The notes under the pieces were generated by a model. The model saw only the letters and a program-made list of their open reading frames with translations. It ran no database searches and was not told the origin of the DNA. The translations under genes were made by a program, and so were the position numbers. A DNA stretch of 13,205 nucleotides, taken from a virus. Its lineage: Duplodnaviria; Heunggongvirae; Uroviricota; Caudoviricetes. Where the stretch lies: the IMG/VR virus record IMGVR_UViG_2671180849_000011; one strand, 5' to 3'. Positions 2,396 to 11,328 of this stretch are shown here, piece by piece. Positions within the stretch are counted from its first letter, which is position 1; each line of letters opens with the position of its first letter.

Positions 2396-2581
2396 TTACA
2401 CCTCGCCCTGTCTTAAAGATTTTGATAATGAAATAGCTCTTTTCAGGGCCTCTTTATCAATATTATATTTCTCCGCAAGCTCTTCGATTGAGAGGTCACC
2501 AGAGGAAGAAGCCCCGCCCTTAATGACGGGAGCATTGTTATCACTTTTTAATTTTTGATAAATCTTTTCGTAGGTATTCAT
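2396..2581 (-). CDS. hypothetical small protein (61 aa) with helix-turn-helix-like segment
   Basis: ATG at 2581 one nt after stop of the upstream gene (TGA-T-ATG); its stop TAA 2396-2398 lies 3 nt before the tape-measure ATG; segment LSIEELAEKYNIDKEALKRAI looks HTH-like. Confidence 0.45.
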   Translation of the reverse strand: MNTYEKIYQKLKSDNNAPVIKGGASSSGDLSIEELAEKYNIDKEALKRAISLSKSLRQGEV

Positions 2582-5742: not shown

Positions 5743-5786
5743 GTTGACCTCCGGATCTGTTTCTCCCACTATCTATAATCTTATCA

Positions 5787-5808
5787 TATTGACAACCAAT
5801 TGTCAATA
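5787..5808. promoter_or_regulatory. palindromic operator overlapping candidate leftward promoter
   Basis: Perfect inverted repeat TTGACAA (5789-5795) - CCAA - TTGTCAA (5800-5806), arms extend to 9 bp; on the - strand TTGACA, 17-bp spacer, TAAGAT; a third half-site TTGTCAAT at 5929-5936. Confidence 0.4.
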
Positions 5809-6424
5809 GGAATCATTATCATTTAGGCGAGCTATAGGTACAAACAAGTCCACAGCAAAGGGGTAAGCATTATTAATGGCCCCTACCGTGTCAAAACCAA
5901 AGTCACTTATAGCATTTATGCAATAAGATTGTCAATGGCCCACAAGGGAGGGAGAGCACTTTTTGCCTTAAGCGCTCTAAAATCGATTCTAACGCGATTT
6001 AGAGGTCAGGTAATGCAATTGCACTACTCACACAAGTTAATGCAGCCAGAAGGCCATTTAGGGGCCTTATTTTCGATTTCTGAGCGTCCTGTTACGTGTG
6101 TGCATACACGGGCGCGCGGAATCCCTCGCTTAAACGGTCCGGATTGGAAACAGAAGTCTCTTATCCGGACTCCACATTATATAGCTACGTGCTATCGCAC
6201 TACGCTACCCACACACAGGCCGACGTAGTCGGTTTAGCTGTATAGCTAAAGTCACAGAGTGACCCACACACAGATTGCCTAAAGAGTCGCTAATGCTCTT
6301 TAGGCTTTCATTTGTGGGTTAAGCTTTTCCCTTAGAAAACCTTCCCCACTCTCTGATCCCTCCCCATTCCCCTTGGGGGGTTAGGGGGGGATCTGTTGTG
6401 TGATCTATTAATTTATCTATTAGA

Positions 6425-6645
6425 GTGAGAAATTTTCAGGGGTACTAGTGAGAAATCTTCGGTAGTAGTGGTGAGAAATTCTCAGGGGTGTGGGTAGGTA
6501 TGGTGGTTAAGTAGTGAGAAATCTTCAGTAGTTAGAGGCTGTGTATCATGGGGGCAATGACTGCAAAACGGGAAAGCATGACTGTATAAACACACAGGTG
6601 TGAAAATTCTTCACAGGTTAGCGACACCGGAAAAATCTTCAGTAG
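6425..6645. repeat. iteron-like direct repeats, six copies of about 18 bp (consensus GTGAGAAATCTTCAG(G/T)(G/A)G)
   Basis: Copies at 6425-6442, 6448-6465, 6471-6488 (exact 23-bp phasing), 6514-6531, 6598-6617 (degenerate), 6630-6645; preceded by G-run GGGGGGTTAGGGGGGG 6375-6390. Confidence 0.6.
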
Positions 6646-6655
6646 TGTCTATCTG

Positions 6656-6753
6656 CATATGTGGGAAATACACCCTTATTGACCTATTTTGACTAGCAAA
6701 CCTCTCTCTTCTCTCTTTGCTCTGATTTCCTCTCATGTGTGGGAAATATGCAT
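6656..6753. repeat. second repeat family CAT(A/G)TGTGGGAAATA (two copies) flanking a CT-rich tract
   Basis: catatgtgggaaata at 6656-6670 and catgtgtgggaaata at 6734-6748; pyrimidine-rich tract 6701-6734; a related copy aaaatgtgggatata near 7047-7061. Confidence 0.45.
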
Positions 6754-7488
6754 ACCAACACCCGTTGATTTTATCAATAGCTATGTTGACCGGGCATCAT
6801 AAGTGTGGCCCCTGAGGCAGTCCATCCTTCCCTCACACAGGACAATGAATATATAAAGAACATGAAAGACTGTTCACACCAACACGCCGATAAATTGCCT
6901 GAAGAGGCTTACATGGGGTTATTGTTGTGTGGGTAATGGTGATCATGCTAACAGATTATGTTAATCAGATGTAAATTCCGATTTTGTGGTCTGCATGGAG
7001 CAAACTATACTGGTTAAATGATCAGGGGAATGACTACAAAACAATCAAAAATGTGGGATATAGCCATCTACACGTCTAATGTGCTGTGTGGGGTGTTAGT
7101 GCATGCTTACATGTAAGTCATTGATTTGAAGGGTTGGGAAAATTGCATTTAACATAATAGATCTTATCTACACTAATAAAGCGAACTACAAAATCTGATT
7201 TAAAAATCATGATCAGTGGGCACAGAATTTACGTACAGCCACCTGAATAAATAATGTGCACAACATACAGCAAAGCTTAAGAATTAACATAATAGCAACG
7301 TGGTCAGTAGTGGTGTGATATTTGAGAATTGTTAGAAGAAAAAAGGGAGGTGGGGGAGCGCCTGCCTGGCACCTCAGACGAGTTACCCATAAGCTCAAAT
7401 ACCGCTAATGGATATTTCTGACACCCACACCCAAGACCGCTTTCAGCACATAGCCATATAGCCACACAGGACCGCACAGGATGCAATT

Positions 7489-7698
7489 GTGATAACAAAA
7501 AATGGGGGTGTAATAGGGTAGGTCACCTTTCATCAAAATCACTTCTACGACGTTTCCAGAGTGATAACAAGAAAACAGGCCTCTAAGATTATCTGTGCCT
7601 CGTTTTTAGCTTTTTGTGTGGTTACCAGGTGAAGAGGAAATGTTAAAAACTGTTCATTTTATGCACAAACTAGTCAGGGTGATACCACAAAATGAGGT
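7489..7698. repeat. third repeat family GTGATA(A/C)CA-A-rich-GG, three copies
   Basis: gtgataacaaaaaatggggg 7489-7508, gtgataacaagaaaacagg 7561-7579, gtgataccacaaaatgagg 7679-7697; DnaA-box-like TTATGCACA at 7659-7667. Confidence 0.45.
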
Positions 7699-7887
7699 GT
7701 AAGAAATCCAGCTGCAGATAATCTTGCAGCCAGATTTTGCAGTTTTTTAGGGTATGTTAAATTTGACAAAAATAGAGAAAAGGCTTATTAAGCTAACTTA
7801 TTGATTTTATTAGTATTACGAAAAAGGGTTACACCCTCTCTCTTACTCTGTCAACCGGGCGGTTGTGGCATAAAACGGATTAAATCA

Positions 7888-7946
7888 ATAAATAGGCATT
7901 AAATAGGGGATAAATAGGGGTTAATTGAGGGATAAATAAAAAGGGG
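7888..7946. repeat. five tandem 11-bp phased repeats (A/T)TAAAT(A/T)GGGG
   Basis: Units start at 7888, 7899, 7910, 7921, 7932 (exact 11-bp period); last unit merges into the terminator stem. Confidence 0.55.
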
Positions 7947-7959
7947 CCGTGATGGCCCC
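7931..7959 (-). terminator. rho-independent terminator of the membrane-protein gene
   Basis: Stem GGGGCC (7943-7948) / GGCCCC (7954-7959), loop GTGAT; - strand tail TTTTTATTTATC (complement of 7931-7942); 8 nt past stop codon 7968-7970. Confidence 0.6.
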
Positions 7960-7967
7960 CTGGTAGG

Positions 7968-8498
7968 TCAGAACAGTTTTTTGCTTTTTCTCCAACTAAC
8001 GCCGCGTTTGCCTATGCTCAGCCAGCCGCCAGCGAATCGGGTACCTGCGGTAACACTAGCTCCCCTGGTACCTACATGTGCATAAATACCTGCTCCACTG
8101 CTACCACCGCTTCTACGGCTTTTTCCGCCATCGATATCAAGGAGAACACAGATCGCATTCCACCAAAAGCCGATCACCCATATTGCAAATGCTAAGCCTA
8201 AAACGCCCCAGGTGACCGCCCACCCTTCCAGACTAGTGGGGAAGTAGAAAGCATTGAGAACAGCATTTATAGGGCGGATCAGGAGAAAATCTATAAAACC
8301 AGTATCCACATGAAACGGTCCATTGCCGAACTTGCTACTGCCAATAAATAAGGTAGCAGGGTAAAAGAAGATAGCCATTGCCCAAGGGCCAATAAGCAGG
8401 ATAGTAGCCCCGAACTGTGCGGCCTCCTTAAAGAACATTTTTACTATTGCTTTAAAAAGCTTTTTGTTTTCTGATTCTTTATCTTTCTGAAATAACAT
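7968..8498 (-). CDS. polytopic membrane protein (176 aa) with Gly/Ser/Arg-rich C-terminal tail
   Basis: ATG 8498 preceded by AAGGGG; about four hydrophobic segments; own terminator; position and type fit a superinfection-exclusion or abortive-infection moron (inference). Confidence 0.6.
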   Translation of the reverse strand: MLFQKDKESENKKLFKAIVKMFFKEAAQFGATILLIGPWAMAIFFYPATLFIGSSKFGNGPFHVDTGFIDFLLIRPINAVLNAFYFPTSLEGWAVTWGVLGLAFAIWVIGFWWNAICVLLDIDGGKSRRSGGSSGAGIYAHVGTRGASVTAGTRFAGGWLSIGKRGVSWRKSKKLF

Positions 8499-8555: not shown

Positions 8556-8816
8556 CTATTTATTCTTCTTAAATCTCCCATCCTCCTTTCTCTCGATATT
8601 GTGGTAGTCGGCATAGGCTTTCAGCCTTCTGTGCACGGTGGCGATCCCCACACCGAAGGTTTTAGCGATAACCTGTCGTGGTGTTCCCTCTTCAACCATC
8701 TTGTACATCTGTTCCGCTACATCCATTTGTGCGGCTATCTCCATTTGCTTTGCCTTAGCTTTAATTTCAGCTATCAGCTCTTCCCTCAGTCTCCTGATAT
8801 CTTTAGCCCCCGTCAT
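8556..8816 (-). CDS. small HTH DNA-binding regulator (86 aa)
   Basis: SD GAGGAG 3 nt before ATG 8816; N-terminal predicted coiled coil; C-terminal HTH TPRQVIAKTFGVGIATVHRRLK of the resolvase/Mor-like type (by eye). Confidence 0.6.
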   Translation of the reverse strand: MTGAKDIRRLREELIAEIKAKAKQMEIAAQMDVAEQMYKMVEEGTPRQVIAKTFGVGIATVHRRLKAYADYHNIERKEDGRFKKNK

Positions 8817-9336: not shown

Positions 9337-9365
9337 TTGACAATGTGAGTAAATACTGATATAAT
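9337..9365 (+). promoter_or_regulatory. perfect-consensus sigma70 promoter (TTGACA - 17 bp - TATAAT) with AT-rich upstream region
   Basis: TTGACA 9337-9342, exactly 17-bp spacer, TATAAT 9360-9365; AT-rich 9305-9335 (UP-element-like); faces the capsid genes. Confidence 0.65.
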
Positions 9366-9373
9366 ATACAGTA
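9354..9373. promoter_or_regulatory. LexA-type SOS box overlapping the -10 element
   Basis: TACTGATATAATATACAGTA matches the E. coli-type consensus TACTG(TA)5CAGTA at all ten flanking positions with an AT-only core. Confidence 0.45.
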
Positions 9374-9508: not shown

Positions 9509-9517
9509 TTATCCACA
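9509..9517 (+). promoter_or_regulatory. consensus DnaA box TTATCCACA inside the capsid-operon leader
   Basis: Exact 9-mer; also the 5' arm of an inverted repeat CCACACAG (9513-9520) / CTGTGTGG (9539-9546). Confidence 0.3.
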
Positions 9518-9845
9518 CAGTTTTCTTTTGCGGGTTTTCTGTGTGGGTAGCTATCCCGAAAGGTATTTCCCCGCTGATGTGACCGCAGCCTGAACTGATT
9601 CGGGGGAGTGCCTTTCGTGATAGTGCTCTCTAGCAACCGTAACCATGCAGTGAACTATCAGCCAACTGTTGTTGGTTTTCCCCATATGGAATAGCCCCCG
9701 CTTGGACGGTGCGGGGCTATCTCCCTCTCCTTATATCAATCCCCCTTTAGATTTCCGGCATAACTTTTCGGCCCGAGCCTGTCGTGGTTTGAGAGGTTAT
9801 ACCTGAACCCTTTGAGGGGAGTTAATTTAAATCGCAGGTGATCAA

Positions 9846-11243: not shown

Positions 11244-11296
11244 AAAGGGAAGAGGTGGGAGATTGTGGGTAGGTCTTTCCCTCTTCCCTTTTTTGT
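11244..11296 (+). terminator. strong rho-independent terminator after the capsid gene
   Basis: 12-bp stem AAAGGGAAGAGG (11244-11255) / CCTCTTCCCTTT (11280-11291) then T-run to 11294; begins 5 nt after stop codon. Confidence 0.65.
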
Positions 11297-11328
11297 TATC
11301 CCCGTCTTAAGTTTTTGAGGTGTCTTTT

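Follow-up and report, generated by a model that had tools for sequence, protein, structure and literature searches.

Three direct repeats in the gene-free block of a putative plasmid-like phage satellite may be sites for a satellite-encoded regulator

Three copies of the word GTGATAMCA, each leading into an A-rich run and a G-rich stretch, are found in the gene-free block of the viral DNA analysed here (13,205 nt, referred to below as the window). Tentatively, we regard them as a site array for a regulator encoded by the satellite itself, most likely its HTH_7 protein, which would control transcription or, less likely, packaging. Several observations are consistent with this possibility. The repeats are alike beyond chance and were kept selectively, on both sides of a spacer (between copies 1 and 2) that did not survive in divergent relatives. 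There is no surviving ORF of at least 15 aa over them, no RNA-structure signal (z +0.4 to +1.8) and no Rfam match. Moreover, the motif is satellite-specific, since no comparable position weight matrix (PWM) site was found in rV5 or in the ends of the HdK5 genome.

A pattern scan of the whole window returned exact GTGATAMCA matches at 7489-7497, 7561-7569 and 7679-7687, all on the + strand, and so bears out the earlier note, which had claimed three direct repeats at 7489, 7561 and 7679 sharing GTGATA(A/C)CA. A fourth exact match, at 2536-2544 (- strand), is within a small ORF. The expected count across the 13,205-nt window is 0.15. The copies are as follows.

7487-7515, + strand: repeat copy 1, TTGTGATAACAAAAAATGGGGGTGTAATA, with the core at 7489-7497, an A-tract, a G-run and TGTAAT
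7559-7589, + strand: repeat copy 2, GAGTGATAACAAGAAAACAGGCCTCTAAGAT, the weakest copy
7677-7705, + strand: repeat copy 3, GGGTGATACCACAAAATGAGGTGTAAGAA, a match to the pattern

The unit had been described as about 19 bp with an A-run and GG. The shared word is indeed exact, but the length was underestimated: the unit is about 27 nt and consists of GTGATAMCA, an A-rich run, a G-rich stretch and then T(G/C)TAA(T/G). All copies have the same orientation and together span 210 bp, with irregular spacings of 72 and 118 bp. The PWM made from the copies scores the three of them at 18-22 bits. As a post-hoc statistic on a single 9-mer is weak, a family-wide shuffle test was used instead, in which any three-copy 9-mer family with at most one mismatch in total within 250 nt was sought in 1000 dinucleotide shuffles of 6229-7967. 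Such a family is present in 7% of the shuffles. The observed copies are 79% alike (sum-of-pairs identity 45/57 over 19 nt), which is comparable to the self-similarity of the iterons (45-49/57), while the families in the shuffles reach 38 at most. Because 0 of the 1000 shuffles attain the observed three-way similarity, the repeats are beyond chance, and the suspicion that they might fall within chance expectation can be dropped. A scan of IMG/VR and metagenomes for the three-copy arrangement returned unrelated tandem arrays only, none like that in the window.

One more strong PWM match, a candidate fourth site at 11287-11302 (- strand) that has GATAACAAAAAA in common with copy 1, was rejected: it coincides with the T-tract in the terminator of the capsid gene, and CP148565 has a changed sequence there. 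This terminator (11244-11302) reads AAGGGAAGAGG...CCTCTTCCCTT followed by T6, and 12 nt of copy 1 are exactly complementary to its tail, TTTTTTGTTATC. The complementarity is probably a coincidence, since it too is altered in CP148565.

Two divergent full-length lineages, reached via homologues of the HTH_7 protein, allow the copies to be compared with their surroundings; block identity to the window is 85% for L141 and 80% for L143 and L144. The core of copy 1 is 100% identical in L141 (GTGATAACA) and 87% identical in L143 (CTGATAACA), its A-tract and extension are 95% and 89% identical, respectively, and the copy is unchanged in 9 close relatives. The core of copy 3 is 87% identical in both lineages (GTGATACCA in L141 and GTGATATCA in L143) and its extension 95% in both. 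Copy 2 reads GAGATAACAGTAAAA-AG in L141 and L143, with 80% identity in the core and 68-79% in the extension, and is conserved no better than the block average. In L143 the 9-mer decays differently in each copy (CTGATAACA, GAGATAACA and GTGATATCA). Two of the intervening segments behave very differently from each other.

7523-7558: spacer between copies 1 and 2, replaced in L141 and L143, with 39% identity against 80-100% for the flanking copies
7590-7654: conserved segment separating copies 2 and 3, with 90% identity in each of the two divergent lineages, containing TTTTTGTGTGGTTAC and AAACTGTTC

Copies 1 and 3 are conservation islands beside the replaced spacer; with their 3′ extensions they are 87-100% identical, against a block average of 80-85% in those lineages. 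In the divergent lineages the replaced spacer carries CTCTTCAGG, the reverse complement of the helper-box word CCTGAAGAG. Downstream of the repeats, identity over 7773-7880 is 50% in both L141 and L143. The earlier note had made its repeats depend on conservation, and this was found: the copies are 80-100% identical in relatives that are themselves 80-85% identical. However, the repeat stretch must be under additional constraints, since the 60 nt after copy 2 (7595-7654) are conserved as well as the copies or better; over the 35 nt at 7590-7624, a single position differs across L141 and L143, in L143. Among 10 close relatives the whole of 7400-7790 is nearly invariant, so that conservation at this shorter distance is not specific to the repeats.

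Complete circular E. coli 'plasmids', 13.2-13.7 kb long, are 88-95% identical to the window. The encoded proteins include a tape-measure protein, an O-like/HTH_36 replication initiator (Rep), a variable membrane protein, the 86-aa HTH_7 protein, a major head protein, a Dit-like protein and a neck/tail-completion protein. In protein-domain scans of the ORFs, no terminase, portal or integrase gene was found in the element. The rV5-like relatives of the structural proteins are from Vequintavirinae, which are virulent myoviruses, and the identity to rV5-like phages is 50-52% for Dit, 45% for the neck protein, 26% for the tape measure and 24% for the capsid; no rV5 homologues of Rep, the HTH_7 protein or the membrane protein were found. 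Capsid homologues in a collection of 5.8 billion proteins are all at least 81% identical and, where the organism is named, all from E. coli. Capsid-based searches of GTDB genomes and IMG/VR returned no relatives. From its gene content, the element looks like a plasmid-like satellite of about 13 kb that belongs to rV5-type (Vequintavirus) phages. No description of such an element was found in the literature searched. One record, NZ_CP043822.1 (39,610 bp), is three units long and contains the region in triplicate; it is therefore a trimeric or concatemeric form. Another relative, L147 (GCA_028597965.1, JAQRGU010000003.1, 67265-87738), is a rearranged copy of the element, 81-97% identical; it sits between IS elements in a 94.6-kb contig, beside an IncFII repA, and no HTH_7 gene is called in it.

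About a quarter of the element is noncoding, and no conserved ORF is present in 5770-7967, where the repeats are located. In the identity profile over nine relatives, the iterons (6400-6700) are at 56-74%, most of 6700-7800 is at 94-99% and the membrane-protein gene (7968-8498) is at 38-71%. The 1.1-kb noncoding block thus exceeds some genes in conservation. Part of it resembles DNA of the putative helper.

6700-7450: helper-like part of the ORF-free block, with 10-25-nt words in common with the ORF-free box/terminal-repeat region of rV5-like phages
7316-7340, - strand: 25-nt word with a counterpart in Vequintavirus HdK5, at bases 27-51 of its 459-bp direct terminal repeat

The block and the rV5 ORF-free box (DQ832317 104,014-106,617; L015:4014-6617) have 13 12-mers in common, against 1.2 ± 1.9 for other rV5 windows, and only rV5 windows that overlap the box score comparably. 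The 25-nt word is matched at 24/25 identity in 21 Vequintavirus genomes, always in unannotated DNA, and these are the only recurrent phage matches of the block. The HdK5 record (MK373780) begins and ends with the exact 459-bp repeat (1-459). A colinear homology between the block and the HdK5 concatemer junction was considered and rejected, since the Smith-Waterman score is 48, against 37.7 ± 3.3 for shuffled sequences, and only short words are common to the two. To judge from these words, the helper-like block may mimic the genome-end or packaging region of the helper. Word-sharing with the helper box peaks over 6800-7450 and is at background over 7480-7700, which places the repeats in satellite-specific DNA. 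None of 50,697 phage records contains DNA matching 7480-7710. The best PWM match in rV5 or the HdK5 ends reaches 14 bits, and the box holds a single GTGATAAC only. The repeats thus adjoin a segment that resembles a helper genome end, and are 150-360 bp away from the 25-nt word.

Two other kinds of short sequence recur in this part of the element. The word TGTGTGG(G)/CCCACACA is found about 12 times, in both orientations, over 6207-7622 (for example, at 6736, 6926, 7085 and 7615 on the + strand and at 6208, 6263, 7424 and 7462 on the - strand). It is also frequent in the rV5 ORF-free box and resembles the proposed late extended -10 motif of rV5, tGTGGTAAAATa. At 7888-7940, units of the TAAATAGGGG type recur with an 11-bp phase; relatives differ in how many they have and in the G/C polarity (TAAATAGGGG versus TAAATACCC), and some have insertions of 30-100 bp there. 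These phased units may be bent DNA or a binding array.

The repeats have to be compared with the iterons and with a DnaA-box-like site.

6423-6646, + strand: Rep iterons, five copies of GTGAGAAATCTTCAGTAGT
7659-7667, + strand: DnaA-box-like 9-mer TTATGCACA, an exact fit to TTATNCACA, between copies 2 and 3

The iteron words differ from lineage to lineage while their 23-23-43 bp spacing is kept; the loci compared (window 6423-6646, L141:5172-5363, L143:11455-11565 and L007:360-477) show four variants, GTGAGAAATCTTC, CGGAGAAATCTTCCG, CGGTAATATTTACCG and GTAAAATATTTTGAC. This suggests a rapid co-evolution of Rep and its iterons, possibly driven by incompatibility. The GTGATAMCA copies are nearly fixed across the same lineages in which the iterons are rewritten. 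Therefore, the repeats represent a specificity separate from Rep, and the distinction drawn earlier between them and the iterons at 6425-6645 is upheld. Secondary Rep iterons were likewise rejected, as the repeats have a different word, no tandem phasing of about 22 bp and no co-variation with the Rep lineage. A second DNA-binding specificity, as the earlier note had implied, is thus supported indirectly by these comparisons: its separateness from Rep appears sound, regulation is plausible as a role and is what we infer, and partition is not supported.

The idea that the repeats are a partition centromere or a DnaA-assisted origin element is very improbable. In its favour, direct repeats are typical of centromeres, an exact TTATNCACA stands between copies 2 and 3, and DnaA-like 9-mers with at most one mismatch are enriched in the window as a whole (30, against 13.7 ± 3.6), although they are dispersed over the element. 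However, no ParA, ParM or ParB-type domain was found in the 16 ORFs scanned with Pfam, 10 of which were also scanned with PHROGs, and the copies number only three and are irregularly spaced (72 and 118 bp), which speaks against a centromere of the parC/parS type. The claimed DnaA-box-like site does fit the pattern exactly, but is not conserved: TTATGCACA reads TTGTGCACA in CP178698 and TTCTGCTCA in L141, L143 and L144. Three exact DnaA boxes are present in the window, against about 0.4 expected; the remaining two (8077, - strand, and 9509, + strand) are also lost, so that none of the three is conserved, and full-length L141 has none at all. In addition, the TTATGCACA site is 1 kb from the iterons. 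A DnaA box or DnaA-assisted origin was rejected on the loss of the 9-mer in divergent relatives and the lack of any conserved exact box; by this comparison of sequences, the match of TTATGCACA arose by chance. The word ACTGTTCA occurs twice in the window (6869 and 7649), one copy directly preceding the DnaA-like 9-mer. In rV5 itself, about 12 close-set ACTGTTYAC-like words resembling origin iterons are present at 105,480-105,640 (L015:5480-5640), in the ORF-free box past the inferred terminal repeat.

Just past copy 3 there is a hairpin for which the comparison of relatives is informative.

7713-7749, + strand: intrinsic terminator, with an outer stem (7713-7717/7739-7743) and an inner 4-bp stem, then T6

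Three of the five pairs of the outer stem are changed on both sides in L141 and L143 with pairing kept (CG>UA, UA>GC and GC>CG). Of the stem cells, 95.6% are paired; sliding the 3′ partner by 1-3 columns lowers this to 24-44%. A competing proximal hairpin loses two pairs. All three changes are in one lineage, and the covariation therefore amounts to effectively one evolutionary event. Given this covariation-supported terminator immediately downstream, + strand transcription across at least copy 3 is likely. A promoter-like site is present on the + strand at 7228-7255, while a promoter scan of 7480-7720 found none. By inspection for -35 and -10 hexamers 16-18 bp apart, with A at -11 and T at -7, an acceptable sigma-70 pair exists in copy 2 only (GTGATA-17-TAAGAT), and its -10 is lost in L143; neither sigma-70 promoters nor rV5 'late' extended -10 motifs fit the copies, and both were rejected as explanations of them.

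Other roles in expression were also considered. A structured noncoding RNA was rejected, as folding z values over the repeats are 0 to +1.8 (7400-7720) and not below those of shuffles, an Rfam search gave no match in the window or in the rV5 box, and RNAalifold on the aligned relatives found no compensatory change outside the terminator. In the RNAalifold model, copy 3 pairs with conserved words upstream; all four of the single substitutions there are pair-compatible and none is compensatory. Pairing of all copies with an anti-repeat, as in P4, was rejected as well: the candidate, a U-rich stretch at 7604-7627, is at the 1.2 percentile against copy 3, but its energies against copies 1 and 2 (-7.3 and -8.9 kcal/mol; 44th and 19th percentile) are background. 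No ORF of at least 15 aa over the repeats is intact in L141 or L143, and small ORFs or leader peptides were rejected since the ATG of copy 3 becomes TTG or TCG in relatives and the ORFs that start in the copies are not conserved. Past the terminator, a 16-codon ORF (7754-7804, ATG...TGA) is open at the same length in all relatives examined; its amino acids diverge past residue 5, and it is without a well-spaced ribosome-binding site. Elsewhere in the window, the stretch 6200-6400, between the iterons and the region upstream of the rep operon, is strongly structured: folding z is -6 to -7 for the + strand and -4.6 to -4.8 for the - strand, and its parts include a hairpin (6277-6305) and a C-run/G-run element (6360-6390). 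At 9338-9366 (+ strand), about 480 nt upstream of the capsid operon, there is a consensus sigma-70 promoter, TTGACA-17-TATAAT, and the long leader of that operon (to 9845) holds the inverted repeat CCACACAG...CTGTGTGG at 9512-9548.

The candidate binder of the repeats is encoded nearby.

8556-8816, - strand: coding region of the 86-aa HTH_7 protein, which lies about 860 bp away from copy 3

The protein matches Pfam HTH_7 at 27.5 bits (cut-off 23.8), and its best sequence match in the PDB is Hin's DNA-binding domain (E=3.5e-4, residues 34-67). Every lineage for which the repeats could be read has the same recognition-helix region, FGVGIATVHRRLKAYADYH. A more distant HTH, in the L012 lineage (SRR3146357), is 59% identical and has the recognition helix IATVQRRLR, which carries the changes H62Q and K66R; the L012 contig ends inside the neighbouring gene, before the noncoding block, and in a search for that block the only homologue found led to the close relative L147. 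The AF2 model of the protein (mean pLDDT 85) has a 40-residue N-terminal helix, the HTH and a low-confidence hairpin. A Foldseek search with this model returned generic winged-HTH regulators only (E at least 0.1) and did not single out Hin. Domains of the Hin type read a short major-groove word beside an A-tract (hix half-site TTATCAAAAACC; TTATC + AAAAA). The layout of the repeats, GATAAC + AAAAAA (GATAACAAAAAA), resembles a hix half-site, which is a lead. The HTH_7 protein is considered the candidate binder on account of its proximity, its joint conservation with the repeats and this site architecture.

In the regulator-site reading, the three copies would be recognition sites of one sequence-specific DNA-binding protein, neither Rep nor DnaA, for which the element's own 86-aa protein, similar to Hin/resolvase DNA-binding domains, is the candidate. 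The repeats would form a satellite-specific module (approximately 7480-7750) of the 1.1-kb conserved gene-free control region. Once occupied, three sites in the same orientation over 210 bp could control events across the stretch. Of such events, + strand transcription up to the terminator just past copy 3 would be the likeliest target; whether the packaging machinery of the helper can reach the segment, some 150 bp off, that looks like a genome end would be a less likely one. Against the regulator-site reading stand the generic Foldseek result, the conservation of copy 2 at the block average, the lack of any PWM copy of the motif upstream of the HTH_7 gene and the fact that no convincing sigma-70 promoter overlaps the sites.

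Three other explanations have to be weighed against it. The repeats could be sites for a protein of the helper, either a small terminase or packaging factor (cf. the R sites in the cosB of lambda) or a factor for replication or transcription, and thus a part of the genome-end mimicry. The setting is suggestive, with the Vequintavirus terminal-repeat word (bases 27-51) 150-360 bp away, a surrounding block that resembles the helper's ORF-free box in word content, an element that has no terminase or portal gene of its own, and a precedent in cosB for three spaced repeats beside a cut site. However, the best PWM match in rV5 and the HdK5 ends has 14 bits against 18-22 for the copies, although the true helper could differ from both; the sharing of words drops to background exactly over 7480-7700, and 0 of the 50,697 phage records match the stretch. 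We consider this rather unlikely. Still less probable is that the repeats act at the RNA level, in a + strand noncoding transcript ending at the terminator at 7713-7749, where the A-rich run and the Shine-Dalgarno-like G-run (GGGGGUG, GAGGUG) might be bound by Hfq, by ribosomes or by some other RNA-binding protein, or might make up a small-RNA module. The three compensatory pairs in the terminator, the pairing of copy 3 with conserved upstream words (4/4 compatible substitutions), the promoter-like site at 7228-7255 and the purine-rich + strand across the block (AT skew up to +0.22) are all consistent with it. Yet compensatory changes are confined to the terminator, folding z is 0 to +1.8 over the repeats with no Rfam match, the invariant U-rich word is at background against copies 1 and 2 (44th and 19th percentile), the short ORFs beginning in the copies are not conserved, and no convincing promoter is found close upstream.

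Finally, the repeats might be functionless remnants of local duplications, kept only because the block evolves slowly. The near invariance of 7400-7790 among close relatives would agree with this, as would the conservation of copy 2 at the block average only and the different decay of the 9-mer in each copy in L143. It is difficult to reconcile with the retention of copies 1 and 2 on either side of a replaced spacer, with the 87-100% identity of copies 1 and 3 and their 3′ extensions against 80-85% for the block, and with a three-way similarity far above that of shuffles; we therefore think it improbable.

Known systems offer partial parallels. In lambda, the cosB sites R3-I1-R2-R1 are bound by the small terminase gpNu1. 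Both arrangements have three spaced words of about 16-27 bp over 120-210 bp, here beside genome-end-like sequence. In contrast to lambda, this element has no terminase gene, neither rV5 nor HdK5 contains its motif, helpers of this type end in direct terminal repeats and not in cohesive ends, and the repeats are all direct. The hix sites of Hin and Gin and the res sites of Tn3 and gamma-delta offer another parallel: an HTH_7 protein is encoded nearby whose best solved relative is the Hin DNA-binding domain, a short word is followed by an A-tract as in TTATCAAAAACC, and there are three sites, as in res. Nevertheless, the 86-aa protein is without the catalytic domain of serine recombinases, and nothing here implies a role in recombination; the sites are single and direct, not inverted pairs of half-sites, and the fold search was not Hin-specific. 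The satellite phage P4 can exist in a plasmid state, has a cos copied from its helper P2 and has an immunity based on CI RNA with the repeats seqA, seqB and seqC. Both P4 and the present element are helper-dependent, plasmid-capable and 11-13 kb in size, and each combines end sequences like those of its helper with short repeats located in a noncoding control region that is transcribed. They differ in the helper lineage, which here is that of virulent rV5-like myoviruses, in the capsid, tape-measure, Dit and neck proteins that this element encodes itself, and in the complementary anti-repeat of the seqB kind, which was searched for here and not found. The Rep-bound iterons of plasmids are likewise direct repeats of about 19-22 bp in noncoding DNA near the origin, but the repeats here have another word, no tandem 22-23-bp phasing and no co-variation with the Rep lineage.

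By itself, a small array of protein sites in the control region of a mobile element is nothing unusual; it is the setting that makes these repeats notable. As a more speculative version, which we consider a long shot, they could be the packaging-specificity module of the satellite: once bound to them, the HTH_7 protein would recruit the terminase of the virulent rV5-type helper to the mimic of the terminal-repeat end about 150 bp away, or position it there. If this were true, a phage with direct terminal repeats would package a 13-kb plasmid into capsids made of the satellite's own coat protein, and a virulent myovirus would have a plasmid-borne satellite whose cosB-like recognition array originates from the satellite itself. 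Whichever role they have, the repeats mark the border between helper-like and satellite-specific DNA. They represent a defined target for tests of the small HTH_7 protein and a mutable handle on the regulation or packaging of the element.
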